Assembly (NCBI GenBank): GCA_977018835.1
Contig: OZ361260.1
Location: forward strand, 2,976,001 to 3,040,000
Source of the DNA: Minutocellus sp. GHC0000111
Taxonomy: Eukaryota
DNA length: 64,000 nt
Direction: 5' to 3'
In this document: one piece after another, positions 12,738 to 47,141 of the stretch
Position numbering within the stretch: the stretch's first letter is position 1
Layout of the letters: the number at the start of each line of letters is the position of its first letter
Translations under genes and position numbers: made by a program
Notes under the pieces: model-generated
Databases searched by the model: none
The model's input: only the letters and a program-made list of their open reading frames with translations
What the model was told of the DNA's origin: nothing

Positions 12738-12803
12738 TTTTTCATTAGCTTTCCTCACATTCGACTGAAAGTAGATAAAAATGCCAAGTCGCCACTACAT
12801 GTA

Positions 12804-12983: not shown

Positions 12984-13330
12984 CAGTCTCTGCAATTATT
13001 AGTTGGTCTTGAATGATGGGTTATACAACAAATATGGTTATTACTACATGTATCATGCAAACGCAACCATGTATTTCGCTTGGATCAATGTATCAATATC
13101 CCCTCTAAAAAAGAGACGTTGGTTCTTCTCTTTTCGGCCCTTTGAACCCTTGGTAGTCTACGGCACATGCCTTTCATGCCTTTCACCCCCATAAAACGAG
13201 CAAAGCACATATGGCTGGCATGTAGCCATCACACATGCTTCTATCCAGACCACTTTTCACTACATAGGACTTCCTGCCGGTCGGTACGAGTGCTAGATCG
13301 TCTACTAGCTAGAATCTAGCTAGGTACGCA

Positions 13331-13507
13331 CAGTCTGTTCTCACCTATAAGCAATTGGTAATTGCTTAGGTGAGGGCTGAGATTCTGAGCATATTGCTTA
13401 TTCTAAGAGCTAATTGGTACCTCATTCCCATGTTATTCCTTATTCCAAAATAAGCAATTTGAGACCTCGGGCCCGAGTCTCAATTGCTTATAGGTGAGAA
13501 CGGACTG
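13331..13507. mobile_element. MITE copy 2
   Basis: Same TIRs and body. Flanks are CA (left) and TA (right). Confidence 0.9.
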
Positions 13508-14040
13508 TAGTGCTACCTTTGGCTCGTCGGCGCGCAAGCAACAGGCACAAATTAGATTCTTAGCACTAAATAATGAAAGATATGGGATACCAAGTGCGTG
13601 TCGATCTGGCGACGCCAGCGACGTTTTCGCCCAGAAATCGGAAAGTCCGAAGAAATACCTACAAAATCTCATTTCTCAGAATGTTTTCCATAATTTTTGT
13701 TTTGGAACGACAGTTTTGTGCTACTCAAAAAACAAAAAAATAATATTTGCCTGAACTGGAGAACTATTTATTTGAGAATTCGAGTCAATAAGGCAAGTTT
13801 GATGCAAAGTTATGAATGTTACCGAGGTGTCGCACTACATGTAACTATCACCGTTAAAACTATCAACCTTTATGTACTTGTTGATATGTTCGCCGTGTTC
13901 GAGTCACTCGTGTAGGATGACACAGCACAGCTTCAGCATCAGCCATTTTTACCAGCAAACACACGAGGTTTGAGTTTTTACACGTACCAAATGCATCAAA
14001 GCAAGCTAGTAACATAATAAATCTAAGTAAAAATGTCAAT

Positions 14041-15681: not shown

Positions 15682-16998
15682 TATATTGCGAGAGGATCTT
15701 TCGTCGCTGGAAGGGTTGCCATTCCAAGGGTCTTGCGCATGGCAGCAGCAGATGCCACAGCACCATAGTCCACAGCAATTGCAGTGTCAAAATCAGGGTC
15801 GTCCCTTGATAGGCCCATGCTATCAGCTCTCCATCCTCTGCAAAGATTCATTCCACCATTCTTTTTCATGAGCTCAGTTACAATCTGACCTCCGTCTTTC
15901 CGGCACTGCCGTTTCGCCGGCGGACTAGAGGCCGTTCCCCCATCGTCTTTGTCATCTCCTAATGCATCTTGGCGAGTCCTTTTGATAGCTGCACGAGCTG
16001 GGGGGTTGTGGATGATTGGAGCAGAAGATGTGGCTGATCGAATTCGAGTGAGGCGGAAAAGGGGAACATCATGCTCAAATTTCTGGGCTGCGATGGCGTC
16101 ATGCTGCACATCCACCGTCGTCAGCTTCCCACCGGAGCCTTTCACATCGGTAACGATTCCATCACCGCCGGGAGAATTCTTGTGTGGGCTGCAGTCTGAT
16201 GAAACCCTCACGGTATCGCCTTTTTGGAGGAGGGGTTTGCCCGACACATAGTTGCTCGACTTCTTCCCCTTCGGCGGCGTAGTGATGGAAGTGACGGCAC
16301 CTCTTTGTTTTGCATGCTCCTTCCTTTCATATTCAAGGCATATGCGCTTATTCTCGCGCTCTTTCTCCGCCGCGACCTGCGCCTTCTTGGCCGCCTTCTT
16401 CGCAATGTCTTCGGCTGCCTTCGCTTTCTCGGCATCCAATTGTTGGGATCGCTGCACTTGCGCCGGTGCTGGCGACGACGATGGATGAGAGGACGTATCA
16501 GTCGATGTACCAGTCGGCAGAGAAGGCGGAGAAGGCGGAGAACGAGCAGGAGACACAATGGCCGGGCGAGTCGATGGCGTTCGAGTCACGTTCGACGAGG
16601 GTGAGGTATTGGCATTATTTGATTGCGATGCGGCCCGTGCAGACGTTGTTGGACGGCGGGATGAACGAGCGTTGTTGGAGGCTGCTGGCGACCGAAAATA
16701 CGTAGGAGGCCATGGGAGGAGATCACCCCTGGATAAATGCATGTCTGCAAGGAAGGTTTTTGTCGCTGAGATTGGTCGTGTTGTTTATATCGGCCACGAA
16801 GCATTTGTGGCAGCGCAAGTTTGCGTTCTCTTTGCCGTATCTTTGGAAGTGCTGCACTTGACAGCAGTGGTGGAACGATGCGCCACATTTTGTGCACCGA
16901 TCATTGGCGGGAGGGCCGGCCGAGCCAGGGATAGCCAACGCGCAAGCGCCAATTTGAGAATAACTGCAGGAGTTTGGCATAAATGGGAGGAGGGGCAA
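15681..16998 (-). pseudogene. Upstream transposon ORF(s): PHD-like finger, low-complexity linker, Tudor/SH3-like barrel
   Basis: C..C..CTKC-x4-H-x2-C..CHKC pattern (16723-16998). KGDTVRV...GIVTDV...VDVQH...EHDVP segment. Confidence 0.5.
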
Positions 16999-20140: not shown

Positions 20141-20293
20141 ATTCGTGTATTTGGTCGGTAGAGCAGACCGGTTGAGCGATGGTTGGAATTCCTACTACGT
20201 AGTAATAGTATGGCGGAAACGCACTCGTCGGGTTGGTTGTGTGGATTGGTTGTCTGCGCTGGTCGATCTCGGATACAATGTGTGGATCGCCTA

Positions 20294-20480
20294 CAGTCTG
20301 TTCTCACCTACCATTGGTATAAGCAATTGGTAATTGCTTAGGTGAGGGCTGAGATTCTGAGCATATTGCTTATTCTAAGAGCTAATTGGTACCTCATTCC
20401 CATGTTATTCCTTATTCCAAAATAAGCAATTTGAGACCTCGGGCCCGAGTCTCAATTGCTTATAAGGTGAGAACGGACTG
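20294..20480. mobile_element. MITE copy 3 with a 9-bp insertion in the left TIR
   Basis: Same family, intact TA/TA TSD, extra ccattggta after ctcaccta. Confidence 0.9.
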
Positions 20481-20764
20481 TATTGGTTCGGCCCTTCGAA
20501 GCAAGGCGCAAGCAAGGAAGCAAGCAGAGCCGCCACTCATCAGTCAATGCTGTACCACCGCGGTTAGATCTACTACGGTACATGTAGATCCAGATTTAAC
20601 CCATGGCCTTTCCATAGATCTAAATCCTAGATCTAGATCCTAGATCTAGAAGATCTAGATCTACTCCTATGAACATTTTTAATCTTTTATCCTATTGATA
20701 TATACACATGGTCGTGTCCAATGCCTGCTGCATGCATGTCCCATGACACTGCATTAGATCTACA

Positions 20765-20945: not shown

Positions 20946-21016
20946 CAAGGTGCTGCTGAAGGCTGGCTGATACTACGACAAGTCTCTCTTTTAACGTCTC
21001 GCCCGTCCCTTTGAGT

Positions 21017-22122
21017 TTACCCAATTATTCTAGGGATGGCATCCTCGACAATCTTCGTTTCGGCCGAGTCAGCATCAGGAGTGTCGACCACAATCACGAC
21101 CAGATGCTTGTTTGGAACGTCAGGCTTTTGAATGAAGCATTCCAAACAATCACCGCTGTCGTCACACTGCCCTCCAATGGATGCAAGAATCATCGAACAA
21201 CACTCTTGGGGCGCAAGAGGGATGGGATAGGTCCCCTCTTCTGTAGGATGATTGCCGACGGAACAGTCCCAGGGGCCGATTGCAATCTCGACGCCATCGA
21301 TGTGCCACTATGTGTAAGAAATGGGTGTAACGCGCAACAGAGGCGGCGAGAGTCAGATGGAGAGAGCCTTCTTACAAGAAAAAATGCATGTTGTGTACCG
21401 AGGCACACATGCACAGCGAGCGTAGCATGGCATTTTCACTCACCTTGTAGGGATAATGCACAATCGAGTCACCATTCGTTCCCACAATCTGGGTGCCAGA
21501 GTCATCCGTTAGAATGACTACCTTGGCATGGTCAACATCATCTTCGTGTCTCTTGGAGCGGACCTCGAATTGTAGATCATCTGTCGTTCCACCCAAATGC
21601 ATGTGTGAGGAGGGCCTCATTTTGCTCCAAATCTTGCATAATGGTCGCCTCGCATTCCTTTTCGTTCAAACCAACGCAGTTGGGAAATTCCAATTGCAGT
21701 AGGTGTAAGCTTCGAGTGGCGCTGTCGGCACCAGCAGACTCAACGTGTTGATCGAGGTGGGCCATGATTTCCTTGACTCGTCTGAGCATGTCACCCTTGG
21801 AAGGGCCCTCGGTTCCCTTGAGTGAACGCGATGCCGTTGTTGGTTTTAGATAGATCAGTTCCCTATCTTCATCCGAGGCAGTCCCTTCCTCCACCTTGAG
21901 AATTCTCATTGGTCTTGACGGTCCTTCCATGGTCTTGAGCACACGACCCTTGCTCGAAGTGGCAGCTGCGTCAGAAGTGGCAGTGGTGCTTTTATCACCA
22001 TCGCTCGCGAGCAGGTAGCGACTGAAATTTGATGCCGAAGCATCACCAACTCCAAGGAGGGCAGCCGTTCCGGCACAGATGCCCAAGACGGCGGCAAGGA
22101 ACCGCTTTGTATTCAGATTCAT
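21017..22122 (-). CDS. Secreted RXL-repeat protein with C-terminal potato-inhibitor-I-like domain(s); one intron and one frameshift (~21600)
   Basis: Signal peptide; RYL/RVL/RIL/REL/RSL motifs; FPNCVGLNEKECEATI; last exon WHIDG...PRIIG*. Confidence 0.5.
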
Positions 22123-22599: not shown

Positions 22600-24099
22600 A
22601 TGTCCTCCAAGTGGCAGCAGCAGCCCAACCGGCACTACTGTGCCCTGTGCAACGTGTGGATGGCCAACGATCGCATCTCCATCGCCACGCACGAGAATGG
22701 TCGGAAGCACAAGGAAGCCGTCGAGAAGGATTTGCAATCGCGCCGGGCCGACAAGCTCGAGGAGGAGCGACGCCGGAAGGATATGGAGGACAGCCTCCGC
22801 GCCATTGAGGCTGCGGCTGGTAAGAAATTGGAGGAGGACTTGGGTGGTGGCGCCTTCGCCGGATACTCGTACTCGCATGCCGGAGGAGTGGCAGCTGTAG
22901 CGGCCGGGGCAACTGGCAGTTACCCGCCAAGTAATGCTGCGCAGGTTCTGGCACAACCCACAGCCGGACCGGGATCTATTCAGAGCAAGCAGCAGCCTGA
23001 TGCCTCCGCCAAGAAGGAAATGTCCAGCTGGAACGAGCGCAAGAACAAACGCAAGGCGGATGCGACCGATAGGAGGGGAGGCGAAGGTGCCAACGACGGT
23101 GACGATGCCAATGGTGGAGCTGCAGCGGCTGCGAAGAGGCGGAAGGTGCGCAAATTGGCAGCCGATGAGGGACACTACACTCTTGGGGAAAATGACGACA
23201 AACGGACGTATCTAGAGGGCAAGGTGTACTCTGCAATTCTCGAAGAAGAAATGCCAGTTCAGATCTGGATCGGGGACGATGATGCACCGACGTCCAGCAT
23301 GGAACTGGAGATGAAACGAGATGATCGGCAGCATCTATGAAAGATGGGACTTGTCGTGAGAGTTCGAAGGCTCAAGAAGCTGCAGCCAACAATCAAGGGA
23401 GGTTTCATTGAAGAGGGTGCGGAGTCACATCTGAAAGGAAATGATAATGAGGAAGAAATTGCGGTGGATGTTGCTTATCTTCGGAATTCAAACGACGAAG
23501 ATGAGACGATTGAAAAGGCAGTTCCGCCATATCGACTGCGTTTGCTGCTGGGATCCGACGAGATGATACCTGGTACCATCGAGGAGGCCCGATTGGATCT
23601 GATGGGTGGAGAGGAGATTATTGAAACACACGCCGACGATGGAACGGCCGGTGGTGCTGGAGCTGCTGCTGCACCCACCATCGATGAAAACACCGGTCTG
23701 GCAACATGGAGCACAACGACCGTCCGGAAGGTCAGCGCCAACCGCGAGGCCAAGGAGGAGAGGGCGCGGATTCGGGCCAAGAGGAGGGAGGAGGCCGAAA
23801 GGGCTCGACAGCAGGAGCGGGATCTCAATGAAAGGAAGATGGAAGAAGCAAAGGTGGCAAATGCCGACGATAGTGCCCTGGGGAGTTATGATGTTTGGAC
23901 AGGAGGAAAGGCCGGGTACAAGGGAGTGGACATTATGAAGAACGACAAGGTCGAAGTCTCCGATACTGTCAAGAGTTTGGCGAAGGGCAAGGGCACTGTT
24001 GCCTTCAAAAAAATTGGAAGTGGTTCATCGATGTTCAAAGTCAAGGCAAAAAAGAAGAAAAATAGAAGAGTTACAAGTGCCGACGATGATGACGACTAG
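22600..24099 (+). CDS. U1-type (matrin) zinc-finger protein, WBP4/FBP21-like; in-frame TGA at 23338-23340
   Basis: HYCALCNVWM...HENGRKHK finger. The ORFs on either side of the TGA are in the same frame. Confidence 0.7.
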
Positions 24100-27150: not shown

Positions 27151-27476
27151 CCTTGGGCCTTGCTTTGCTCTTGTTGTTTTGCAGTTTTTGTAGCTACCTA
27201 GGTACGTAGTTTTTGTGCGAGAGACAGGCGGAGAAGGCAGCCTCCGGGTTTCTGCTCTGTGCGTCAACCGGCGTCAACAACCGATGACACATCGAACACA
27301 GTGCCTCCCTCCGCTGATTCTCCCAACTCTATGCAACTTAGTAGAACATGAAATGCAGTTTAACTACGTGAACTGGAGCTGGCATTGGCGGTAAATGAAA
27401 CTTCTTAGAGGGTGAGGTCACTCTCCCCCTCCTCCTTTCCGTAGCACAGATCGGCCAACAATGTGTGTCGTCGTGC

Positions 27477-28793
27477 TTAGGTGAACAGCAGCAGAGGGCG
27501 CGAAGGGGGGCGGGCATTGGAGTCCCGAAGCCGGCATTTCGGCCAACACTGTTGATGCCGGCGAAGGATTGGCAGCAATTTGGGGTCCTTGGGTCTTCGC
27601 GATGGCTCGTCGAGTGTGCGTGGGGCACGTTGAAGAAGGAACCTCGTTGGATCATGCGTGTGGAGACTCCCGGATGTAAATTCTTGGACCTGGCGGCGAC
27701 GGATGCACTTGAGGAAGGCGTCACTGGACCACCGCCCTACCAGCATGATTGTGTACGTGGGAACATCATTTAGATACATTGCCATTGCTGCTCCGCTGCG
27801 AATGGAGTGTGATCCGAATTCAGAGGGATGGCAGCCCAGGACGTCCTCTCCAATCACTGTGGCCGACGACGCTCTCTCGGATCTTGTCAACTGTTCGGGT
27901 GGCAGGAATGCATTTTAACACGCCGTTGACCACGAAGGCATTTACCGGCGTATCGTTGTTGGTACTAGGGCACCCTAGGACTCGTTTCACCAGGGCAGCC
28001 CAAGCTTGAACTGGCTGGGCAGAGGGTGGCGTCGTGGGTGCAGTGTTGCGTAATCGTGTGACGTCACGCTCGTCGTTCTTCTGGAACTCAAAGGTGACGG
28101 AGACAGAGTCTGCTGAGAGGAGGGACCGGTCGTTGTGACACATGCGCCGTCGGCCGCGGTAGAACTGGATGTTGCGGAGGCGGAGCAGCTTGGTCCTGCG
28201 CTCACCGCTGACTCTGGAGTGTTCGCAAGACCTCATCGCGAAGAAAAGAAGGCGCCGACGGCTAGTTGCCCGACTGCACGGTCCTCTTCCGTTTCCCTGA
28301 CGGAGGCGATCTCTCGGAGGAGCCGGCAGGTGATCGCCTTCTCCGGCCGCTCGGCCGGGTCGGACTGGCTGTGTCCTCGGCGGAACTGCCGCTGTAGAAG
28401 AAGGAATGAAGGCTGGCCGATGTCGTCTTTCCCTGGGTCCCTGCGCTGGTTGTGCCGGAAGGACGAGCATGCACATGAGACGGTGTCTCGGACTGTCGAC
28501 GCAGCCAGTCGCGAAAACTTTGGCCCCGAAAAGCTGGCCTGTCGGACGGCGTGGGCAAAGGCGCCGAGAATGACTGTTCGGTCTCGGGGTGACACCTTGT
28601 CGAGGAAGACGTCGTCCCCGGTCCCGATGAGCTGCAGGAGCTCAGTCCAGCGGCTCCACGCGAGAGCGTGCTTCTCGGCAGTGGCCGTTGTAACTGCTTC
28701 CTGACGGGCAGCGTCCGCGCCTGCGAGACAATCCAGGAAGTAATCTCGTTGGGTAGTGGTGCAATCATCCTGAAATTTGAGGGAAGCTGACAT
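27477..28793 (-). pseudogene. Tyrosine recombinase of the retroelement; catalytic Tyr mutated to Cys
   Basis: FFAMRSCEH, FQKND, HSIRSGAAMAM and GRWSSDAFLKCIR motifs; several frameshifts. Confidence 0.85.
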
Positions 28794-30828
28794 TCGGGAG
28801 ATGATGGAAGCAACTTCGTGAGGTCAGCATCAGAGAGGTCGGTGTGTCACGAGAAAGAGAATCGGCCTCCGGATTGTGCTTCCCCTGGAACCACTGTGAG
28901 CACAGCATGGTGTTGGTCTCGATGAGCATGTCGGCTAGTTTCCGCGCCGTGGCCAGCTTGACCGCTACGTCGGCATCCTTCTCGCCGTGAGACACAAAGT
29001 TCGACTTCCTGAGCCATCCCTCGGCCGTGGTGCTGTCGGTCCCCGACAGCACGCAGGAGAGGGTTGGCAGGTTGCCCTCGATGTGGTCGATCCATGGGCC
29101 GATGACGGCGGCGAGGAACTCCAGGTAATTGAGGGTGAACCGGCCCCACAGCTCCTCGGGGAGGGCAAATCTCCACGCTCTGCCGGATGAGGACCATCCG
29201 CCGATGCCGTGCTCGGAGGCGTCACTTGTGCACTCGTGGGTGGGGCAACGGTGCGTGAGGAGGTTCATGCTCATGCCATCGGCGGCCCTTCGGAGGAAGC
29301 GGAGCCACAGGTTGAGGTCTTCTGCATCCTCAGAGTCGAACCGTTGGCGGCCGTGGCGGCGGGCCTTCCAGAGCCGATCCCGAAGGCGGCTGAGGAAGTG
29401 TCGTGCGGCTGGAATGATGTGTCCGACGTGGTTTAGCCTTCCGACCAAGGTGTCCAGCTCTGATCTGGTGGCGCCGCGGGCTCTGAGGAGCCGAAGCATA
29501 TCATCGCGCCAGGCCAGGTGCTTGCTCCAAGGGAGCCTCAGTAGGAGCCGCCGGGTGTCAGCATCCCACCCCAAGAGACACAGCACTTCGGAAGGCGCCC
29601 CCTCGGCGAGCAGCTTCTTGATGGAGGCAAGGTCATCTCTGGGCAGTGGCTCGCTGTCGGACACCGGTCGGCCAAGCGCGTGGATGGCGAGGAGGGTGGC
29701 AGCGGATGTCCGATCCTTGTTGTCGCCCAGGTCAGGGGCTGCGGCGATGAGGTCATCGATGTGCGGCTCGACCATGCCATCCTTGTTGTCGGGAAGGGTT
29801 GCGATCATGTCCAGGGCCGGCGCAAACGGCACATCGTCGCCCTCCACCTTGGGGCGACCCAAGTGCTTCTGCTGGGGGCTGTGGAGCTCTGACGGGTCCC
29901 AGTCCAAGCATTGCAGGAGGGCCCTGGCCAGGTCGGCAAGGGCGGCCGCCGAAAGTCAGAGCAGGAGGGACATGAGGGCAATGCCATCCAGGGTGGTGAT
30001 CGTTTTGACGGCCGTGCTGGGAGCCAAGTGGGCCCGGCGACACGCAGCCTTGAAATCGACCTTCTGCAGGAGGATGGGAGCACGGGGATGCTTGTGACAG
30101 GCGTCTGCGATGTAGTGGATCACTCGCCGGAGGGCATGGCCGAACACCACTGGCTGGTGGTCCTCCATGCGTGCTCTGTTGTTGACGGACCGTGCGGCAC
30201 CGATCTCGAAGGATTGGTCGTGAGTCAGGCGGTCCTTGGGCATGATCTCGCCAGCCTCGCTGATCGTGTTCTGTACCACCAAACCCATCGGAGCCACCTC
30301 CGCTCCAGGAATGAGGGGCGCGACCTTTGCTGGCAGAGGGAGGGCGAAACCGCGGGTCACGTCGTCGAGAACTTGGTCCTTGAGCACCTCCGGCCTATCC
30401 CTGGCCGATTTGTGGTTGCCTCGGCCGATGTTCTTTATCACGCTGTCCAGTCTGCTTTCGTCGCTCACCGGATCGAGGGCCCAGTCGGATCCACCGTCGA
30501 GAATGGAGCGGAAGCGGGGCCACAGCGGGTGCCGGCCAAGAATCGGCTCCAGAAGACTCAGGTCTCTGAACTCCGATCCCGGTTGGAGTGGCGACCCGCC
30601 CTGCGCCTCGAGTGCCCTGCTCAGAGAACGATCGTATTTCTTGAGGACCGACCAATTGTGAGCGGCGGCCTCCGTCAAGAGCTCAAATCTGAACTCCGTG
30701 GGCTTCGGTGTGGCCGACGGGGACTCGACTGCTCGTCGGACGTGCTGCACCAAGGTGGAAACATCGAAGATGGGCTCTAGTTCCCACGTGGAATTGCACA
30801 AGGCGAGAAAAAGGTGAGACATGTGCAT
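28765..30828 (-). pseudogene. Reverse transcriptase / RNase H of the YR retroelement
   Basis: KDRLTHDQS, KVDFKAACRR, LTFGG, HIDD (YxDD position), LGW, SDAS..GIGG, NYLEFLA, TDSTTA and N.EADSLSR motifs. Confidence 0.85.
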
Positions 30829-31414
30829 GCTGCACGTTCACGAGCATGCGGGTCTGTCCGACCGTGGTGGGCCCATTGTGGTCGCTGGGCTGCCCCGTTT
30901 GTTGTAGGTGTTTCTTCACCTGTTGGTCTCACTTACCATTTTGGCGTGTCGGTTCTGCTTCCTTGCTGTGCGTAGGGGAACCAGGGGGAGACTGTGCTTC
31001 GGGTTGGGGCTGCTTACCTAGGAGATCCTTCTCTCGCTGGCCTAGCCGGTCGAAGAGGTTGTCGGTGGCTTCCGCACCGCCAGCGTTAGTGGTGCTGGAG
31101 CCAGAGCCTGAGATGCTGTTGTCGGCGCAGGCATCACCGCTGGTGTTAGGGGGGCCAGGACCCGACCGAAGGTCACTGCTAACGCCTCGGCCTTCTGCTC
31201 CGGTGTTAGGGGCACCGGAGAGCCTGGATTGGTTGCTGATGTTGTTGCGACCGCACACGCCGGATTTTGGGGTGCCGGACAACCTTGGGCGGCTGGAGCC
31301 ACCGGGGCGGATCGACGCCGACGTGTCTGGCTGCACTCGACGGCGCTTGGAGGGACGAGATGTTTCTCCAGCATCCTCCGAGGGTGGGCCACGCCTCCGT
31401 GCCCACCCGATCCG

Positions 31415-33480
31415 TCATTCCTCCGTCTCCTCGTGCTTCCGATCGCATTTCTCGACGTGCTGCTCGACGGGTCCTCTCTCCGATGCCTTAAGAGGCCTCT
31501 TGACATGCGACTTCTTGAGCTTGCACGAGGATCCGGCGCCGCAGACACCTGTCAGGATGAGTGGAGGGCAGAATTTACAGCCATTAATTTCAGGTCTGTC
31601 CTCATAGGGCTCGGATTTCTTGCCATGCCGTTTTGCAAAGTTGCCGGGGTTGATGTCGAACGTGACGAAGTGTTCGTGCTGGTGGCCTCTGCCGCTGGCG
31701 CCGCCCGTCTTTTGCTTCTTTTTCGGACTGGTTCTTGGCTCTGATTTGTCGGAGTCGGAATCCGAGGAAGGGGTGGGAGCGTCGGCCGATTGGACGAGCT
31801 TGATGTGGCTGGGGTAGACGAAAGGATTCTGAGTCTTCATTGTCTTTTTGGACTCGTCGACCATTGAGAAGCAAGAGAGGTCGTTGCCGGCGTCGTCGGG
31901 GGAACGGAGACAAGCTTTCCAGAATGCATGGATGGAGGCGTCGACATTGTGGAACATCGCCAGCCAGAACTTCTCGCCATGGCTCTCGGCGATGTCGCGG
32001 CACTGGTCCTCGTGTGTCTTCATGTGACTGAGGACCCTGGCGACGTAGCGAGCGGGCTCGGAATCCTCTCCGGCAAGGAAGGAACTGCCAGCGCCGAAGG
32101 CCGAGATGTGACGTTTGGCACCGTCGCACTCGGTTGGGGACCGGTAGTTCTGCTTCAGAAGAGCCTTCACCTGAGTCGAGGTGCATCCTTTCTTTTGAGA
32201 GGCGGCGAGGTGCAGGGGCGCATTGCTGCTGCTGGAGTTTACCGGGCTAAAGGCGAAGACAGAGAAGCCATCGTAGATTTTCTTGTCGCTCTTCCCGAAG
32301 CCAAAGAGGCGGACGCAAGTGGTGAGGCCCTGGAGAGATGTCCTGACTCCGGTCTTGCCCTTTACATGCAGCTCGAGGCCGACGGCTGCTTGCGTGAGGT
32401 TTGACTCTTCCAGCAGTGCTTTCAATCCTTCGGGAAGATTCGAGTCGATCGCTGCTACATCATCGTCATGCTCGGTCGAGACCCGGCAGAAAGCGGCACA
32501 GGCCTTGAGGATGGCGCCATTCATCGAGTGCTTCTTGTCGACCTTGTCAGTGTAGGCCATGACTGCGCCGGTGAGGGAGGATGCTTCGGACGCGGCCCTA
32601 GTCATGGCGTTGGCCGCGGTAGTGACTGCAGAGTCGGTCGGGGCGCCACCGGCTGGTGGTCCGTCGCCACTGGCGCCAGTGATGTGCACCGAGCGTGCAT
32701 CTCACGTGCATCTCACGGGCGCATGTCTTGAGAGCCGGGTCCGTCGTTGGGTGCAAGCTGACGGCCGGGATGTCTCCTTGCTCGGACGTGGCGACGAACC
32801 ACAGCCACTTGACGACGTGTTGAATAGCCTCATTGGAGCGAAGACCTGCTGCGCCATGACCCTCGTCGTCACCGCTGTCTGATGCGTCGTCGCTGCCGGC
32901 GTCCTCATCCAGCCGACGTTTGAGGGCGGACAGGATGGCCCAAGGCGATGAATCGTGCTCTTCCAGAACATTCTGCAGAATCGAAGGTGGCAGCAGCACA
33001 AGGGACTTAAACTTCGTGGAGGCACTCCGGTGGCGGGTGTTGGAGCCTTCCTGGGTGAGACCGGTTAGGGCGGCTTCTGACGGTGCCCCCAGCATGGCTT
33101 CCACCGATGGGGCTAGGACCTCCTTGTGCCGCAAGAGGCTAGGTTGGGCCAACGACATTGCCGGGGCTACATCGTCGATCCGGAGGAGCCCACCCAACCT
33201 GAGGTCGGGCTGCATGGTGGTGCCTCCCTGAGCCACGGCATGGTGAATCACCACGACTTTCCCTTCTGGATGGTGGGCCAGCATGGACAAACCCTCGGCG
33301 TCGCGGATTTGCTGCTGGATCGCTCGGGCATGGCTCTGGACCATAGCGGCCGTGGGGTCGGTTTCACAGACGTTGTCGGCGAGGAATCTCTGGAAATCTC
33401 GAGCTACGGCGGCGTCGGCCCCGGCCGGCATCTCTTGTGCCAGTAGGACTGACTTCCAGGTGTTGAAAGATGAAGCCATG
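31415..33480 (-). pseudogene. Gag-like ORF region of the YR retroelement
   Basis: Long same-strand ORFs upstream of RT ending in a C-x7-C-x5-C-x5-H finger (CPPLILTGVCGAGSSCKLKKSH); frameshift near 32700. Confidence 0.55.
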
Positions 33481-35434
33481 GTGATCAATGCTCGATCACC
33501 TTGCTGTCGCCTTCGGCGTCGGTCCTCTCGGCGCTGGATGTGGTTCAGATCGGCCGTGAGGGTGAGGATGCGGTCGGCAATGTCGGGCTCTCCAAAGGCG
33601 GATAGAAGGATGTTGAATGCCTGACGCGGTGGCTCTGATGCCAAAACATCGGCGGTGACATCTCGCAGGCGGATGGGTGTCTCGAGATCGTCGGGGCGCC
33701 GGTGAATTGATGCTCTTTTGGCCAGACGCGGCAGTGGGCACCCTCCCAGCGATTTGGATCGGCCGTATCGTCTAGCCACCTCGGATAGACTCGATGGTAG
33801 GTGCCTACCCAGCGGTGTGAGGGGGACGCCGTTCGGTCTGCCAGCCTTCCCCAGCATTCGCACGGGTTGACCTCCACTCGGTGTCCAAGAGGATTGCTGT
33901 CAGGCCGAGTGTGTCGGAGTCGAGCGCTGGTGAGGCTCTCGAATCCACTGTCCCAGTTGATATTAGCTTCAGTGAGTTGGTCCGGTCGTAGGCACTGCCG
34001 TCTCTGGAACGGGTGCGGCGAATCCAGCGGGAACTGGGTGATCAGGGCGAAAGGGCCGATGAGATCTCCTCGCTCCAATGCCACACTGACGCCAGTCCGC
34101 TCGGTTCGGTCGTGTGCGTCACGTGGGTAGAAGAGTGGCCTTGCCTCCCACTCGAAATAAGTGAGCGGCAGCGTTGGTGGAAGCTCGCTCCCCCGTGAAC
34201 CCATGCAAGCGTGCGGTGTCGGCTCTAGAGGTCTGCCCTCTCTGGCCGCGATGCGCCGTCTTTCTTTTCGGTCGGCCTGGTAGTGGAGGATGCACTGCGT
34301 GAGCCGGCAGAGCTGGGGCCAGATGCAATGGTGTTGCCGCGCTGCTGCTACCGATGCCTCCGGACACCTTCGCCCCCGACACTGTTGAACCACGACGCCT
34401 CCGTCTGCCCGTGGTAGTCGGCACAGTGCACTGCTCAGGTCCAACTCAGTTGCCGTCTCGTGTGCCCGGCGGATCTCAGGCTCGGTAAGGCGCGTGGCTA
34501 TCAGCCAGATGTTGACGAGGTGCGTGGGCCAGTCCGGTGACACCAAGAAGGCTTGTTGCTCGAGGCACTCGGCGACCAGACCGTGCGCTGCTGGAGTAAG
34601 GTGTGAAACGGCTGCTGCTGGGGATGGCTGGTGCCCCGTGGCTCTCGATGGGGGGGAGGTAGCCTGTGGCGCGCTCGACGAGATCGGTGAGGTGCTCGGG
34701 GTAACGTCGATTCGGCCCTCGGCAAAACTTTTCCACCAATCCAGTGCGTCTGTGGTCAGTCTCTCGGACGACGCCCTGGCTGTGAAGAAACTTCTGCGCC
34801 CGGGCCGAATCTGACGTCTTAGTCTGTCCCAGCCTCGTGGAAGGTCAGGAGAGTCTCCTCGGACGATGAGGTGTCTCTTGCCACTCCGAACAACACGTGA
34901 TCCAGTTCCGGTCGATCTGGTTCGGCCATGCACTGTTCTGCCGTCGTAGAGACTGGAATCGGATCTACGTGCACTATCAACGGAGCTGAGCCGTGGCCGT
35001 TTGACTCCGGAGTCGACTGCGGTCTCTGGCTGGTGGACTAACAGCAGTGTGGTGTGGTGTGTCGGCCGGCCAATAATTACGAACTCGTAGAGTAGCACCA
35101 ACCTAATGCTAAAACTAACTAACTACTGAGAGAGAGAGACAGGCTCTGGGAGCCGGTACTGTAAGCTGACTTAGCAATTGCAACGGCAGCAATCGCAGAT
35201 GGTTGTGGCTTGGTCAGTTGAGACGAGAGGAGGCGAAGGTGGTGGTCAGCAGAAAAACTGGGCACTACAGGAATGCAGTTTTAGTGCCTGCTGCTAACCA
35301 CCGTCGCCAGCTCATCCCCACCGTGCGGTACCCACAAATCAGCACCGCCGAGCCTCGCTACTAAGTACGTAGCTCGGCTCGGCCGCGAGTTCCACGAGTT
35401 CATTCATCGGCATCAATCAACCCGCTGCCCAACG

Positions 35435-37059: not shown

Positions 37060-37584
37060 AAAAGTAAAATGGCCAGGGATTTAGAGTAAATTGTTGATAC
37101 CATGGGATACGTACGTACGTATACATACGTACGGTACGTACGGTGATCAGACCACTGACTCAGTGCCCTCTCCTGACCGTTGATCCATGGGCCAACGACA
37201 TCTCCGATGGCCCATTTTTCATCTACGTAGGTACTATTAACCTCTACTAGCTATATCTATCAAGCTTAGCTTTAGGACCTCTTAGCAGACCTACGTGATG
37301 CATCTTTTCCACCCGTGCTCGCCCCATTTCGGTTCGCACCTCACCGGTTTGTCTTGGGTTCTCACTCGTCACGCAAGAAAAACCGACACATCTTCAATCG
37401 ATCGGCCAAAACGACCGTTTCTTTCGACAATATTGGAACGACGATCCAATCCCTTCCCCGAAAGTCCTGACCAGATCGACCCATCCAATCGATGATCACA
37501 CTTCTCTGGATCGAACCTTCTGTCGATCACACGTCTCGCAGCAACACCGCCGTGCTGCCTGTCTTCGCTGACTGAAACACCAGC

Positions 37585-38872
37585 ATGAATCCCGACGCAG
37601 TTTTTGGCCAACCTCTCGGCGCAGCGCCGATTCTCCCCACCAAGTTAATCACACGTATGAATGACCCAGGACAACCTCCCCAACGCGAGCGTGTTGCCAA
37701 AGCGCTCAAGGAACTTCAACAAGCGGCGGCCAGCATTCCAGCAGGGTGCAATGACCGACCATGGTGAACTCGGCCACTTGGGCCTCGTCGTCAGCGATGC
37801 CGAACACACCACCAAAAGTAACGGCCGACCACATGTGCCTCCGGCAAATCCTGGCCCCAGCCCCACCATTCCCGCCGTGGCCAATCTAGACCAACGCGAT
37901 CGTGCAATCCGGGGACATTGCATCGAAAAGGGCCACTACAACTTGTACGAGCAAGTCAACACGGCGCTCAAGAATCTCCTCCTCGACTCGATCGACGCCG
38001 TCTACATCAATCATCTCGAAGATGACATGCTCGGTTTCCAGCCAGTCACCATCCGCCAAATCATCGACAGCATTACCGATCGCTACTTGAAATTCAACGA
38101 GACTCAGAAGGAGGAATTAGAGAAGCAGCTCGAGAAGCAGCACGACGGGGGACCCATCGACACCCACATCGCCATGTTCAACAAAGTCTTCAAGGCGTTT
38201 GAAACGGCCGGCGAACCCTTCACCAACAAGCAAAAGGTCTCCAAGTTCTACCGCTCCGTGCGCAGGTTCTCATTGGCAAAGAAGGCATGCGAAGACTGGG
38301 ACGACAGACCGGAGGCCGAACGCACGTGGGCCAACATGCAGTCGGACTTCCGCGATTGGCATGATAAGAAGATGGCCAATACCACCACCGAAGCGGCAGG
38401 ATATCATGGCGCGAATTTGGCCTCATCGGCCTCGGACGATCCATTTCTTTCTCGAGCCGATCTCCTTTTGGCTGATACCACCGAAGCCCTCAAGACCAAC
38501 CAAGCCATGATGGCGAACCTCGCCAAAAAGAGCAACGAGAAGGATGACACCATGGCCAAACTTCGCCAAGAAATAGCTTCACTCAAGGCCGAGAACCGCG
38601 TTCTGCGTGAGGGACGCAACCATACTGGTGGCAGTGGAGGCTACCGCGGCGGTGGCCAGCAGAACGGCGCCGGCCACTTCCCAGGCCAAGGTCCTAACCT
38701 CAACCGCCAGGAGAAGCGGGAACTGCAGTCGATCCTCCCCAGAGGCCATTATTGCCACACGTGCGGCTATTCGTCCAACCACCCCAGCTTTGAATGCACT
38801 TGCAAAGGGCCCAACCACGTTGATAACGCCACCAAGTACAATCCTTGCGGTGGCAGCTCGCGTCGTAACTGA
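37585..38872 (+). pseudogene. Copia gag
   Basis: GELGHLGLV, W..R...RTW.N....F and YCHTCG...H.S..C.....HVDNAT..N..GGS motifs; frameshift near the 5' end. Confidence 0.8.
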
Positions 38873-41800
38873 GCGGGAGGGACGGTGGATATTAATCAGT
38901 ATAAAATAGAGGATAGCACATCTGAATCCACCTCCTCCCCTCCTTCGTTAGCTTTTCTTACGTCAAAAAGCAAACCTCCAACTCAAGAGCCAATCGTCCT
39001 CGCAGCAGATACTGGAACGACGGGACATTTTGTCCAGAAGCCCCAACACCTATCGTGCGATGGCCCTATTTTCAACGTCCAACAGACAGCAATTCCTATC
39101 AGCGTCACCCTTCCGGATAATAGCACAATGACGAACACCCACGAGGCCACGCTTCGCTTCCCTGGGGTTTCCCCATCGGCTAGCAAGGCCTATATTTTCA
39201 ATAATATGGCATCATCGCTCCTATCGATTGGGCAGCTGTGTGACGATGGATGTATTGCCACTTTCGATAAGGATTCGGTAGTCATCGCCAAGGACAATAC
39301 CGTCATTTTGCAAGGTAAACGAGACCCCTCAACGAAATTGTGGATGGTAGATCTTAATTGCTCGCCCACCATGTCGCCGCTCCCCGGCCCCAACGTCATC
39401 CAACATGCTGCCAACGCCGCAATTGCCCAGGAGACGGTTCCGGAACGTGCAGCCTTTTTACATTGGTGCGCTGGCAGTCCTCAGCTATCTACCTGGTGCA
39501 AAGCAATCGATGCGGGATTTTATAGATCTTGGCAAGGCCTCACATCAAAGCTTGTACGTAAGCACATGCCACAGTCGATACCGATGATTAAAGGTCACTT
39601 AGACCAGCAGCGCAAGAACATCAGGTCGACCAAGCCCAAACGGTCGATGGCTACGCCAAAATCTCTCCCTGGGGTGGACGAAACCGAGCAGGATCTCCAC
39701 CCGGCACAACACCAACAGCGCACCAACTATGTCTTTGCTGATTGTCATGACATAACGGGCCAGATCTTCTCAGATCAGCCCGGCCGTTTCTTGGTATCGT
39801 CTATTTCTGGCCACCAGTGCATAATGGTCGTCTATGACTATGACTCCAACAGCATCTTGGCCGAACCAATGAAAAGCCGATCGGGAACGGAAATGCGCCG
39901 AGCGTACCAAACTATTTTCGAATACCTCTCCAAGCGAGGATTTCGCCCAAAATTGCAACGATTGGATAATGAAGTGAGTCGAGAGCTGAAGGAGTTCATG
40001 GAAGAAAAGGATGTAGATTTTCAATTGACCCCAACGCACTCCCACCGCCGAAATGCGGCCGAACGAGCCATTCGAACCTTTAAGAATCATTTCATTGCGA
40101 TTCTCTGTGGTGCCGATCCCGACTTTCCCCTCATCTTGTGGGATAAATTGCTGGAGCAGGCGGTAATGACCCTCAATTTCCTGAGAGCATCCCGAGTCAA
40201 CCCTCGACTATCAGCGTACGAGCAACTCAATGGCGGCTTTGATTTCAATCGCACGCCTCTCGGCCCCCTCGGATGCAAGGTCATCTTTCACGAGATGCCC
40301 TCGGCACGCGGCTCTTGGTCCCCGCATGGCGTTGATGGGTACTATGTCGGTCCAGCCATGGAACACTACCGGTGTTACAAGGTTTGGATTGAGGAAACTC
40401 GGGCGGAACGCACTGGTAACACACTCGTCTGGCTCCCCAAAATGATTCCGGTACCCAAAACGTCGTCGGCCGATGCAGCAATAGTCGCAGCTCATGAACT
40501 AAGGGTAGAGTCGTTGCATTTGACAAGAAGTATAAGTACTACAAAATCAAATACGAGGACGACGACGTAGAAGAGATGAACGAGACTGAAGTAGGCCGAC
40601 ACCTTGTCTCCAACCCCAACGCTCCGTTACCTCAGCCCCAGCAACCTCCGAGGGTGGCAAAATCCTCCACATGTGATGCAGCCACCACTAAAAGCCGTCG
40701 ATCACGTCGATCCAACGCGCCACCTCGCTCGTCAGTTTCTTCCAACTACTACAATCCTTTGGCTGCAGTAGACGAGCCCAACGGCGACGATGATGATAAT
40801 CATGACGACGATGCAACCGTCGCAACATCCAATCAAAGTTCCAATGCCCCCACCTCCCGTCGGCAACGTAAACGCAAGTCTCCAACGATCGATACCACTC
40901 CAACATTGCCAGCTCCAGCAAAATCGACAAGCAAGTCCAAACCATCGACCGCCAAACCACCTCGACGACGATCATACCGTCAGCGAGGGTACATTCCACA
41001 TCGGAACCCTCCCCCACGGCCATCATCTCGTCGTAGTACCCACCACGTGGCCAACATGGCAGCTTTCTCGCCTTTACCAAACCTCCAACACTTTGCTAAC
41101 GCCGTCGTCCATCCCGATGCTGGTGCAATGCTTGAATGCCGCGACCTCCTCAAAACGAACATGAGGGACCAATTCATTCAAGCAAACATCGATGAAATTG
41201 GACGGCTAACGGACGGCCGAGTTGGAAACAGTGCTAGCATTCCCTCCAATACAATGGCTTTCGTCCACTGGTCCGAACTGCCTCGGGGGAAAAAGCCACA
41301 TACCTCCGCATTGTCGCCGACTATCGCTCCCATAAACCAAATCCCAATCGAGTTCGATGGACTGCAGGAGGCGACAAAATTCATTACCCTGGTACAGTCT
41401 CGACCCCGACCGCTGAAATGTTGACTGCAAAGTTACTTTTCAACAGCGTCATCTCTACAGACAACGCTCGTTTCATGGGAATTGATGTCAGTGACTTCTA
41501 TCTCAATAGCACCATGCCAGAGCCAGAATGGATGTGGGCGCCAGTAGCTCTCATCCCCGACGAAGTCATGGAAGCCTACGACCTCCACGACAAAGTAAAG
41601 AATGGTCGAGTATTGGTCAGAATCGATGGCGGAATGCATGGATTACCCCAGGCAGGGCGCCTAGCCTACGATCAACTTGTCAAGCATCTCAAACCCCATG
41701 GCTATTTCCCTTGCAAGCGTACTGCCGGCCTTTGGAGGCACAAAACCCGCCCAATTACCTTTTGCCTAACCGTTGACGATTTTGGAGTAAAGTATGTCGG

Positions 41801-42813
41801 GAAAGAGCATGCAGACCATCTCATTCAGGCCCTCAACTCCAAGTACAAGATCACTACCGATTGGGAAGGCCGACTTTATTGTGGTATTCAACTCGAGTGG
41901 AACTACGAGGCCAAATGGGTGGATCTATCTATGCCTAACTACGTCAAGGAGATGCGCCACAAGTTCCAACACGACCGCCCCTCACGGCCCGAGCATGCAC
42001 CATATCGATGGAATCGTCCGACGTATGGCCCGGGACCCCAGATGCCAGAACCGGAAGACGACTCACCACCACTCGACGCCAAAGGCATCAACGAAATTCA
42101 ACAGGTGGTGGGCAGCTCCTTGTGCTATGGTCGAGCAATTGATTCAACAATTTTACCGGCGCTCAACACAGCATCTCAGCGGAACAATCCAAAGCTACCG
42201 AGCGCACTCGACAAGATGCCAAGAAGCTTCTAGATTACCTTGCAACCCATCCCGACGCAGTCATTCGATGCGTCAAGTCAGACATGATCCTACATGTACA
42301 TAGCGACGCCTCCTACTTATCAGCCCCGAAATCAAGAAGCAAGCTCGGAGGGTGCTTCTACCTAAGCTCCCGACCTAAGGACCCGCACCGCCAGCCTGAC
42401 TCAAGTGATCCCATGCCACCAATGAATGGAGCCATCCTCGTCAATGCCAACATCATCAAGCATGCAATGCCCTCAGCCGCTGAAGCCGAATTGGGAGGAT
42501 TATTTTTCAACACATGAAAGATGCAGTGCCAATCCGGGCAGCACTAGAAGAAATGGGTCACCCGCAGCCCCCTACTGCTATCGTCGTTGACAACTCTACA
42601 GCATCTGGAATCGCCAATGAAACCGTCAAGCAAAGACGGTCTAAGGCTATGGACATGAGATACTGCTGGGTCCAAGATCGCATAGAGCAACGACAATTCC
42701 AGGTGCACTGGCGGAAAGGAGCGCAAAATTTGGCCGATTATTTTACAAAGCACCATCCCGCCCGCTACCATGTCGACATGCGACCAGTCTACTTACATGT
42801 AGATTCCAATTAG
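38873..42813 (+). pseudogene. Copia pol (protease, integrase, Tudor-like domain, RT, RNase H) with a deletion and frameshifts
   Basis: ADTGTTGHF; SDQPGRF, RLDNE, RRNAAERAIRTFKNHF; GMHGLPQAG, LTVDDFGVKY; HSDASYL, AAEAELG, VDNSTA, NLADYFTKHH. Confidence 0.9.
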
Positions 42814-43089
42814 GACTCTACATGTAGATTCAATGGCACTAGTCATTGATCTGCGAGGGTGTGTTGATGCCGTGGGATGCGTACGTACGTATACATACGT
42901 ACGGTACGTACGGTGATCAGACCACTGACTCAGTGCCCTCTCCTGACCGTTGATCCATGGGCCAACGACATCTCCGATGGCCCATTTTTCATCTACGTAG
43001 GTACTATTAACCTCTACTAGCTATATCTATCTAGCTTAGCTTAGCTTTAGGACCTCTTAGCAGACCTACGTGATGCATCTTTTCCACAC

Positions 43090-43635
43090 GTGCCAGTCCG
43101 GTGACACACACACCAAGAAGGCTTGTTGCTCGATCGAGGTGCTCGGCGACCAGACCGTGCGCTACTGGAGTAAGGTGTGAAACGGCTGCTGCTGGGGGGA
43201 TGGCTGGTACCCCGTGGCTCTCGATGGGAGGCAGCCTGTGGCGCGCTCGACGAGATCGGTGAGGCACTCGGCAACGTCGATTCGGCCCTCGGCAAAACTT
43301 TTCCACCAATCCAGTGCGTCTGTGGTCAGTCTCTCGGACGACGCCCTGGCTGTGAAGAAACTTCTGCGCCCGGGCCGAATCTGACGTCTGAGTCTGTCCC
43401 AGCCTCGTGGAAGGTCAGGAGAGTCTCCTCGGACGATGAGGTCTCTTGCCACTCCGAACAACACGTGATCCAGTTCCGGTCGATCTGGTTTTCGGCCATG
43501 CACTGTTCTGCCGTCGTGGAGACTGGTGTCGGATCTACGTGCACTATCAACGGAGCTGAGCCGTGGCCGTTTGACTCCGGAGTCGACTGCGGTCTCTGGA
43601 CTAACAGCAGTGGTGGTGGTGTGTCGGCCGGCCAA
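43090..43635 (-). mobile_element. Second, 5'-only fragment of the YR retroelement abutting the copia 3' LTR
   Basis: About 545 bp colinear and highly similar to 34524-35074. Confidence 0.9.
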
Positions 43636-44827
43636 TCAACAATCGTGCCTGAGGGGGGAATTCAACCCCGCATCGTCGAGGAATTTCAACCTCGCATCTC
43701 AAAAAAAGAAAAAAAGAACTCGGGGCGCCATTTTGGCTGGCCATTTTGGCCGACACAGGCAGGACCGGGTCGGCCTCCTCGTCCTGGCGGGGAGGAAGCC
43801 GCGGCTGGGCCAGAGCTTCGGGGGGTGCCGCTCCCACGGCAGTGGTAGCAGCGGTCGATCGGATGTGGACATTTGCTCCACATGCACCACACACAACCAA
43901 GAAGATTTTGAATGTTTTTTTTTCCGTCAATGTGAAGCCTTAAGCACATTGCAGAACAGTCCACACCCCCAATAAGGACATGTTGATTCTAGCTAGAGCT
44001 GAGGCAGAGCAGATGGCTTTTTAAGACACTGATCAATTTAAGATGCTGCATGTTGTCAGGGCCCTCTCCCATAGTGACTACTAGTAACAAGTAATAGGGA
44101 CATTGGTTGCTATGAATAGGGGCATTGATGTCTTGTTAGCGGCATTACTAGCAGCATCTTAATTTGCCACTCATCGATGATGGCGGCAGATTTGAGCTCC
44201 AAACAAAATCCCTGATGTCTCAGGGTAGGCATCGAATAATTTCACCGGACAATTTTTCCTAGAATCAGCATGTTCTCAGCTGTCCAAAGACGCACAGAAA
44301 GTGTTCACACTATTAACGGATCAAAAAATTAATTCAGATTTCAATCTGCAGCACATGTGTCTTAAGAGGGCGCTGTCCATAACTTTTAGGAAGCCCCCAA
44401 AATGCGTGTTTTGTGCCGTTTTTTCTTCGCACCATCGCCAAAGTTAGCACTCCAAGGTGACAATGGGCTCCTCATCGAAGGCCGCCGCTCTCCACAGTGG
44501 CGAAGAGTCATCGACGTTCCTTTCAGCATTAAGTCGGAAATCCCTCCAGGAACACTTGGTTCAGAGGAACTTCGATGAATCAACTCTCCCTCAGAAACAC
44601 AATGGTCGACGTGCACATCATCGTCGGATCGACCGAAATTAGTCTCGGCCGACGCATAACCAGCATTGGTGGTGCTGGTGGGAAGACATCTTGAAGTTTT
44701 TCTGTTGGGAGGTAAGGGGATATTTGTTTGGGGTATTTTTGCACGTCTCCCTCATTTGGGGTTCTTTTTGTAAGGTTCTCATCGAAAAGCGTGTCTTGCG
44801 CCAGAACCGACACAAAAAAAAACAACC

Positions 44828-47141
44828 ATGGAAACATCACGTGCTAACGCCAAGGAGGCAATCCTCTCACTCTTGCTCTCATTCCCAGACGACGTCAGAT
44901 GTACTTACTACACTATTGATGAGCTTGTCCGTATCTTGATGCGCGGTGGCGTGTCGCCGAGCTTAGAGATCTCTCTTGTTCGATCATCTCTTCAACACGT
45001 CCCAACACGACACGAGGTCAACATCCAACGACGACGTCCAGAGAAAATATCAGGCCTTGACGTTGCAAAGCCCTTCTACCGCTTCTCCAGAATAGCCGAT
45101 AACGCCAGCCCACGCTCTCAACGCAATGGCAAGCGATCACTGCCGACCATGCCTGAAAATTGCTTCCAGGACGATGAAAAGCATGGGCCCCATCTCAACG
45201 CGATGCTGAAATGTTATTCCGACAAGAACTCTTCGGGCGGTCGGTCATCTACTCCCACCGCCAACGCTACCGATCGTCCCAACATCACCGGCGTGCAGCT
45301 CAACGGCAAAAGAATTGTGGTTGAGATGAAGCAGCTGCATGATTTCGTACAGAATCTCCACCGATCGTGCGGCAATCTGTGTCTCTCGGCCGAGCCAGTT
45401 CGGCGTGGATTCGGCGTCACATTTGAATGGTTATGCGATAGACGCAACCAACCTTTTTCTTTTTGCACTTGGATCGGCCAGAGGTCAGAAGTTGTGTGCC
45501 CCGGCAGAAAGCATTCTAGAAGTCAGGCTGGAATGAACTTGGAGCTGATGGAGGCAGCGGAAGATGAGGCCATGTGCGCAAGTCGCTTCATGAATTTCTG
45601 CACGAAGGCCGACATCGTCCATCCGACCGAAAAGAATGCCCGACAGGTGGAAAAGAAATGCAGAGCAGCGGCTATTGAAGCAGCTGATGAAATCATTGAC
45701 GAGAACAGGGCAAAAGCATGTGCCGCTAGCAGCAAGACTGTTGAGTTTGAACAAGGCGGCGAGATGCACACGGCGGCGGTGGTTACGGTGGCCCAAGACG
45801 GCAGCGCCCTCAAACGCGACTACGGCCATTGCTACACTGGCTCTGCTGCAGCGGTATTTGCCGTAGACAAGGAAACTGGCCTTGTTGTTGACAAGGGAAT
45901 CTCTCAGGCAAGCTGCCACTATTGCGTGAGAGCCTGCAATGCAAGATTGAGGGAGAGGCGGGAAGCCGGCAATCCAATGACGCCGAGTGAGCTCAAAAAC
46001 ATGAGCAAGGATGAGACACTGGCCCTGTGCGACCATGATGGCTTCTGCTATCGCAACTCTTCCTACTCCCCCGGTGTGGCAGAGGAGCATCTGGCCGAGA
46101 ATGTTGGGAGTTGAAAATTTTAATGCCATCCCCCGACCACGCATCAATCGGATGAAACAGGACATTTCGAAGATTGCTGATCGGTACAAGCACAGCGTTC
46201 TCGATCAGCCCGATGGTGCTGTGTCCGAGGAGGAAAAACAAAGTCATTTGGCCCTCCTTCAGAAAGAACTCCAGTCCGTCGTTCGTCACCAATGTGGCAT
46301 TCACACTTTTTGCACCACCAACACGTGTGATTGGATTCGCCTCAGCATTGCTCATCCTGATTGGAGTGATGGCAAGCTCGATGAGGAATGGAGCTCGGGG
46401 AATCAATTCGATGGCGACATATTGGAGATTAGTGACGACACGATTCGCAAGATGACGCTTGAAATAACCAAGAGAATCAACAAGAATACTGCCTTTTCCA
46501 ACTGCAAGAAGGAATCTACCACCGGCGTCGAACAGCTCAACGGGATGGTGACGAAGTTCACGATGGGGAAAAGGCCGAATTTGACTGCTTCAGACGCCTA
46601 CCCAAATGCAACAAGTAGAGCCGCTGGCCACAAGTCACTGGGTACGGAATTCAATGAGCGAGTTCTTGGAAAGTTGGGATCGAGGGATTCTCCTACCCGA
46701 AAAGATGGATTCGATGCAATTGACCGGAAGCTCGAGGGCGACCTTGCGCGTAAGCGCACCGATGAGTACAAAAAGAGCAAGAGCGACAGCAAGCGCCTTC
46801 GAGCAGCCTTGCGAAACAGAAGCGAGAAAGACGACAAGGACTATGTGTACAAGAAGAACAGGGCCCTAGCTGCTGGTAAGGCGAAACCAGCAAAGCCTGG
46901 CCGCAAGAAGAAGATTGACCAGCAGTGTCAGAAATGCAAGCAGCTTGGCCACACTCGGGCTGAATGTCAATGCGACGATGCTGACGACGTTGTCGTTTAC
47001 GCCGGAAAGAAGCGCAGAAGCCCAGGCAGCAACAAGAAATCTGCAAGAAATAATAAGAAAGCTAAGACAAACTTCGGTGTATCGGCAAATGATGTTAGCT
47101 CTTGGATGCCGGCGATACTGAGAGAAAATGGCAGCTTGTAA
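44828..47141 (+). pseudogene. Kolobok DDE transposase, broken near 46110
   Basis: VAQDGSALKRDYGH, VDKETGLVVD...CHYC, H...C.RN, STTGVEQLN and C-terminal CQKCKQLGHTRAEC. The second-Asp region appears to be missing. Confidence 0.7.

Follow-up and report, generated by a model that had tools for sequence, protein, structure and literature searches.

TpA depletion and loss of tyrosine codons in a Ngaro-like retrotransposon and other mobile DNA of a probable diatom

The element and its surroundings

The window, a stretch of 64,000 nucleotides of Minutocellus sp. GHC0000111 (contig OZ361260.1), carries on its minus strand a copy of a tyrosine recombinase (YR) retrotransposon, flanked by MOB1 on one side and by a divergent host gene on the other (Table 1). 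The ends of this copy were deduced from a junction in another copy (P0097) and from a relative (L001), and a scan of the window found that depletion of purine-TA-pyrimidine sites tracks both ends. TA is normal in the coding DNA of both adjacent host genes, with a sharp boundary at the element. The likely starts of these two divergent genes are at 27150 and about 35435, which is ~100-130 bp from the element.

Table 1. Features of the YR retrotransposon and of the other mobile DNA discussed in the text
Feature	Position in window	Strand	Details or basis
Whole YR retrotransposon copy, 8,061 bp	27277..35337	-	TTGT at each end, read on the minus strand
RT/RNase H gene	28765..30837	-	Two ORFs, separated by indels: 2 nt inserted near 29964, ~32 nt deleted near 29935
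Tyrosine recombinase (YR) gene	27490..28793	-	10 short insertions, 6 of them frameshifting (frameshift-aware alignment to P0098)
YR nucleophile codon, TGC (Cys) where Tyr is expected	27705..27707	-	Homolog comparison
YxDD tyrosine codon, CAC (His), both aspartates retained	29761..29763	-	Copies and distant homologs
Two upstream ORFs, putative broken gag-like gene	31415..33899	-	Position only
Second fragment of the element's 5' region	43092..43636	-	92% identity to 34528-35074
Mutator-like DNA transposase, same signature	44774..47141	+	PF20700, E = 7e-10
Copia LTR retrotransposon, lightly hit	37092..43095	+	Independent test of the flank rule

Pfam searches with the window's element ORFs matched neither RT nor YR, and profile searches of PDB sequences yielded no significant match. 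Because Pfam failed on these ORFs, the identity of the element was taken from homologs and folds. The predicted model of an RT relative (P0254) matches the RTs of MMLV, CaMV and Ty3 (best E = 1.9e-8), and that of a sister YR protein (P0098) has a Cre-like fold (E = 1.5e-7). PF00589 was found in 18 of 33 YR proteins at E <= 0.1 (best 4.8e-5). Six residues, R184, K235, H321, R324, W347 and Y355, are invariant across 33 aligned YR proteins; this R-K-H-R-W-Y series is the established catalytic set of tyrosine recombinases, with Tyr as the nucleophile. Homologs, catalytic set and fold thus agree with the original prediction, which had called the element a YR retrotransposon and had placed the Cys of FLKCIR at the recombinase nucleophile.

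Under the definition of Ngaro-type elements applied here, from the text of PMC4157794, the gene order, the domains and the repeats of relatives indicate that the element is Ngaro-like. As in Ngaro-type elements, the RT/RNase H (RT/RH) gene lies upstream of an overlapping YR gene on the same strand, an overlap also present in relatives, and split direct repeats occur in relatives L035 and L046 (2 of the 10 long loci examined). RNase H leads directly into YR with no match to a methyltransferase, though Pfam barely recognises these proteins. Unlike Ngaro-type elements, the window copy carries each terminal region once, with no terminal repeats found within it; in P0097 and L001 the 3' region continues into the 5' region, matching what a split-direct-repeat layout predicts. 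The upstream ORFs gave no match in a Pfam search, and they are depleted in purine-TA-pyrimidine sites.

The relatives L001-L080 form an abundant, mostly intact lineage of YR retrotransposons in aquatic metagenomes, estimated at about 810 stretches. Homolog labels include Cyclotella, Skeletonema, Attheya and Ditylum, and some of the YR homologs are labelled Cyclotella or Skeletonema; from such labels the host is probably a diatom. A literature search on diatom Ngaro elements listed no paper that was, by its title, on this lineage.

Tyrosine codons and the direction of change

The substitutions from which the original prediction had started are present in the sequence: TGC at the nucleophile position (FLKCIR) and CAC in the RT motif HIDD, both on the minus strand, as well as the motifs DFKAACRR, RSCEH, NHVGHII and MLCSQW. 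Tyrosine is also as scarce in RT/RH as had been noted, with 1 in a 396-aa ORF and 2 in a 293-aa ORF (given earlier as 380 and 290 aa); it makes up 0.7-3.3% of 80 distant RT homologs. At the nucleophile position, 120 homologs listed of the 212 found have Tyr in 117 cases and Cys in 2, one of the latter being itself a mutated copy, and 1 is unmatched. The metagenome loci have Tyr there in 77 of 80, the other 3 being unmatched. The possibility that relatives naturally carry Cys or His at this position is therefore not borne out among the homologs listed. Among seven other close copies, the position is Cys in 3, His in 2 and Tyr in 2.

How much of the machinery has been lost differs between the two enzymes. 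Five of the six catalytic residues are retained in the window YR, and only Tyr is lost. RT catalysis depends on aspartates, and the three RT aspartates are kept in the window and in 26 of 26, 26 of 27 and 26 of 26 copies. The Tyr of YxDD is conserved but not invariant, since the position is Tyr in 28 and Phe in 9 of 39 distant homologs, and Phe in 9 of 28 loci; the close copies have His in 21-22, Cys in 4 and Tyr in none. The statement that both positions are Tyr in active enzymes thus holds for the nucleophile and only in part for YxDD, and the statement that the catalytic residues are destroyed holds for the YR nucleophile but not for the RT aspartates or the other five YR residues. Tyrosine loss was also overstated as the cause of death: six frameshifts in YR, together with the 2-nt insertion and the ~32-nt deletion in RT, also kill the copy, which would be dead even without it. 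As the frameshifts and the RT deletion already suffice, a defensive effect cannot be read from the window copy.

Compared with the near-intact sister P0098, the window YR has changed at 7 of 11 Tyr codons (4 to Cys, 3 to His) and at 28 of 413 other codons, and many of the 28 differences are common to all copies. At nine RT/RH and YR columns with at least 30% Tyr in distant homologs, the window has Cys or His in six and Phe or Trp in three. For a wider tabulation, 54 close-copy proteins were mapped onto the window; P0098, P0099, P0101, P0216 and P0223 (short-contig, near-intact or sister proteins) were left out, as were columns with fewer than four copies and poorly aligned positions. Among the Tyr-derived cells of this alignment, 255 of 312 have changed, compared with 16 of 1042 for Arg(CGN), and no other residue class exceeds 8%. 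These copies are known as proteins only and some may represent the same locus or allele, so cell-level P values are inflated because the copies are not fully independent. In total, 668 of 15,184 cells differ among the 54 copies, and 459 of these are TA-type: 208 gain or lose TA directly, and 251 exchange TG for CA or the reverse; these swaps alone could derive from CG, and the classifier tested the TA classes first. Their origin as TA follows from the homologs, which carry Tyr at these sites. The direction proposed at the outset, from TA to TG or CA with non-TA codons barely touched, is thus recovered from both homologs and copies.

The same figures bear on explanations that need no special process, namely CpG deamination, general AT-to-GC drift, GC-biased conversion, or active elements that carry Cys or His naturally. 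The 251 swaps among 668 differing cells and the GC content of the element (0.61) would suit them. However, the homologs carry Tyr rather than Arg, the Arg(CGN) codons have hardly changed, and CpG is not depleted over 27277-35337 (O/E 0.92), which suggests that loss of TA and loss of CG can occur separately. The relative L001 is equally GC-rich (0.64), yet its purine-TA-pyrimidine O/E is 0.88. With a Cys nucleophile in only two of the homologs listed, we regard this group of explanations as very improbable.

Comparison at the DNA level points in the same direction. Relative to L001 (78% identical), A>G has occurred at 10 of 29 sites within TA and at 34 of 370 outside it (P = 4e-4), or, by context, at AA in 9 of 70, CA in 9 of 122, GA in 16 of 178 and TA in 10 of 29. 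Relative to the more distant L002 the figures are 13 of 41 and 59 of 315 (P = 0.06). Between 34528-35074 and its second fragment at 43092-43636, 7 of ~9 substitution events are TA-type.

Flanking bases, strands and copies

The process prefers a purine before T and a pyrimidine after A, a rule that the original prediction missed while having the direction right. Among the close copies, Tyr survives in 23 of 251 cells where a purine precedes the codon and in 34 of 59 where a pyrimidine does (P = 0.003 at the level of sites, 19 versus 4). After a pyrimidine, His accounts for 2 of 25 changes, a rarity that fits a requirement for a pyrimidine 3' of A on the strand that is hit. The rule was also seen out of sample, with Tyr kept in 20 of 74 (purine) versus 77 of 87 (pyrimidine) in Copia copies, and in 1 of 32 versus 9 of 11 in 12 further YR proteins. 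In a per-strand fit, the relative rates are 1 for G, 0.64 for A, 0.24 for C and 0.30 for T as the 5' base, and 1 for C, 1.68 for T, 0.08 for A and 0.04 for G as the 3' base. Since the favoured 3' pyrimidine is built into every TAY codon, tyrosines are lost first, and with them the recombinase nucleophile.

Purine-TA-pyrimidine sites number 11 in the 8,061 bp of the element and 49 in 3,750 bp of flank (P = 3e-15, Fisher's exact test), and the favoured sites are near saturation. TpA O/E is lowest in the window over 28001-33000 (0.13-0.30), but it is a weak marker, as the window YR region stands at 0.34 and 3 of 80 intact relatives are equally low. The purine-TA-pyrimidine O/E of the window YR (0.31) is below that of all 80 relatives, so depletion of these sites is the better mark of affected DNA.

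The fitted 3' rates also make TAA and TAG the contexts least hit by the process. It had been suggested that their loss explains the many long overlapping ORFs at the locus, and this is unsupported. The YR ORF has 6.3 TAA+TAG per kb in the intact relative L001 and 14.6 per kb in the window, the antisense frame of AlaRS, a host gene that is itself unmutated, contains 1 stop in 999 codons, and the overlap of the RT and YR ORFs is also present in relatives. The RT core alone is low in TAA+TAG (5.7-6.3 per kb, versus 10.6-34 in host ORFs), where a small contribution of stop loss to long ORFs is possible.

The changed tyrosines of the close copies have become Cys in 126 cells and His in 127, and these near-equal counts indicate that both strands are hit. 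The choice between TG and CA was followed at 24 sites in 36 copy proteins and the window. Over 78 site pairs the mean r is 0.016 and the mean r2 is 0.077, where 0.078 is expected by chance, and 3 of 246 copy pairs are identical. The outcomes are thus unlinked between sites, which argues that each copy was mutated separately after insertion and without strand coordination. A strand-coordinated or processive model was rejected because the choices are unlinked across sites, and the idea that one mutated master copy had passed its alleles on was discarded for the variable sites because the copies share no haplotypes, with the skewed outcomes at 29763 and 30042 as a reservation.

These observations also weigh on ADAR-like A-to-I editing of element RNA that was then fixed by retrotransposition. 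ADAR prefers U before the edited A (as stated in the main text of 10.64898/2026.01.13.699255), in keeping with the T of TpA. Yet editing of sense RNA would yield Cys only, and His is just as frequent. The copies lack common haplotypes, and a Mutator-like DNA transposon has been hit as well. Furthermore, the hot spot of ADAR2 is UAG in the text of PMC10661471, whereas a 3' G is the least favoured context here. RNA editing is, in our judgment, extremely improbable.

Mobile DNA as the target and the likely chemistry

Depletion is confined mainly to mobile DNA, hitting the YR element, Copia and Mutator and sparing the adjacent host genes. In nine close Mutator proteins, 37 of 50 differing cells are TA-type. 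As a DNA transposon is among the elements hit, a route through RNA alone is excluded and the process acts on DNA. The window Copia has kept 16 of 22 conserved Tyr. Of the four substitutions between its LTRs two are TA/TG, a weak result given the small number, and no target-site duplication was found at its flanks. An AT-rich inverted-repeat (MITE-like) element lies at 12802-13512 and 20293-20485; the first of these shows the reverse pattern, with a TpA O/E of 1.00 and a CpG O/E of 0.53, and the few differences between its copies include CA/TA pairs. Both the MITE-like TpA ratio and the tyrosines kept in Copia indicate that repeats are unequally hit. Purine-TA-pyrimidine depletion was absent from a transposase-like tract at 14845-16784. 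On this evidence, a TpA process that acts at the DNA level and targets mobile elements is very probable.

Two other tracts were noted in the window. A second depleted tract at 43001-46000 spans Mutator, the YR fragment and some unassigned DNA. At 21001-22000, 1 purine-TA-pyrimidine site is observed versus 14.9 expected; the tract has no recognisable transposon ORF and may be an unrecognised relic or due to chance.

An excess of short insertions (1-7 nt), mostly repeating adjacent sequence, was observed in the YR gene, between 34528-35074 and 43092-43636, and between the Copia LTRs. The window YR has 10 insertions and no deletion relative to P0098. In-frame indels among the copies comprise 14 insertions and 2 deletions, and 12 of the insertions repeat a neighbouring residue. 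This excess could be a separate signature, or it could stem from assembly error. Two host ORFs also look damaged, with an apparent 2-nt loss in a DnaJ-type gene near 5127 and an in-frame TGA at 23338-23340 in another, either by assembly error or as broken alleles. Such damage is a point in favour of sequencing or assembly error concentrated in repeats, a reading with greater force for the insertions than for the substitutions. A flank-dependent substitution with two outcomes, near saturation at some sites and absent from adjacent genes, matches no familiar error mode, and the 3-kb AlaRS ORF is unbroken. Error as the source of the pattern is very improbable.

Taken together, we consider it probable that the window holds a dead Ngaro-like YR retrotransposon whose genomic copies each underwent their own conversion of TpA to TpG or CpA. 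The agent is likely a host activity that targets mobile DNA after insertion, with adenine deamination as its most likely chemistry. Adenine in chromosomal mobile DNA would be converted to hypoxanthine and read as G at replication, and a candidate enzyme would be a deaminase of the ADAT/TadA type that is guided to mobile DNA in its silenced state, along the lines suggested for Bigelowiella natans. The process may serve in defence. Bacterial TadA acts on a tRNA loop target that resembles the T-A-pyrimidine preference. Deamination is the chemistry toward which we lean, although by itself it leaves the short-insertion excess unexplained.

Error-prone repair synthesis by a Pol eta-like polymerase in silenced transposon chromatin would give both TA transitions and short duplications. 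Such a polymerase favours A>G at WA, and insertions repeating adjacent sequence do accompany the signature, which is at the DNA level and strand-symmetric as repair synthesis would have it. Against it, A>G is hardly raised at AA compared with TA (9/70 vs 10/29), only 43 of 668 differing cells are transversions, and repair patches should coordinate neighbouring sites, which show no strand clustering. We therefore consider repair synthesis unlikely. Alternatively, thymine could be modified (e.g., oxidised or hydroxymethylated) in purine-T-A within transposons and then mispair with G. As the TpA step is its own reverse complement, a lesion on T is indistinguishable from one on A; the two models are formally equal and the flank rule can be read on either base. 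None of the present results indicates a thymine-modifying enzyme, however, and the B. natans precedent was interpreted, as a proposal, in terms of adenine deamination. A thymine lesion is slightly less likely still than repair synthesis.

To our knowledge, fungi are the only group in which defence against transposons by mutation is well known. Repeat-induced point mutation (RIP) of ascomycetes, as commonly described, resembles the process studied here in making dinucleotide-specific transitions in repeated DNA and ruining transposon genes. RIP makes C:G to T:A changes, however, typically CpA to TpA, whereas the process here removes TpA. A closer parallel is the hypermutation at TpA of NCLDV and virophage sequences integrated in the genome of B. 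natans, described in the main text of Mettrop et al. (bioRxiv 10.64898/2026.01.13.699255). In mutation-accumulation lines of that alga, 231 of 302 de novo mutations fell in two viral inserts and were nearly all TpA to TpG/CpA, at a rate of about 6e-7 per site per generation, about 1000-fold above background. RT and DDE domains are enriched among its low-TpA genes, and an ADAT2 homolog, or ADAT2-type deaminase, was proposed. Both cases involve A>G/T>C at TpA on both strands and are confined to foreign or mobile DNA. They differ in that the rhizarian carries viral inserts, and the diatom-like stramenopile carries multi-copy transposons of three classes; the rate there was measured de novo, and the process here is known from existing copies with favoured sites near saturation. 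The main text of that paper reports no flank preference, and the words "flanking", "trinucleotide" and "diatom" occur in it 0 times (figures and supplements aside). A literature search, mainly of open-access titles and abstracts, found no report of a TpA process in diatoms. In print, then, we found the process for one unrelated (rhizarian) alga, and it is extended here to transposons of a probable diatom.

It is possible, and we put it forward tentatively, that diatoms possess a kind of RIP in reverse. A putative natural DNA adenine deaminase, common to distant SAR algae, would edit purine-T-A-pyrimidine sites singly in silenced transposons, with no need for CpG decay, preferentially removing tyrosines from their enzymes, and repair may cause the short duplications. 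Diatom transposons are reported to carry CG methylation (PMC9998398), which might guide the process. Should the reading as RIP in reverse hold, a process whose chemistry runs opposite to that of RIP would operate in a second lineage after B. natans, and on each of the three classes of transposon hit in the window. The flank rule, together with the absence of strand coordination, provides a biochemical fingerprint for an enzyme hunt, and a natural DNA adenine deaminase would be of interest to the base-editing field. Transposon annotation, LTR-divergence dating and arguments from GC content in diatoms would need to account for the process.

At 29763 the outcomes are 22 His to 4 Cys, and at 30042 they are 25 Cys to 3 His, skews that the flank model explains only in part. 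The RT/RH half of the element is more mutated than the YR half, with fitted exposures of 1.97 and 0.72, respectively, which suggests a gradient from the element centre.
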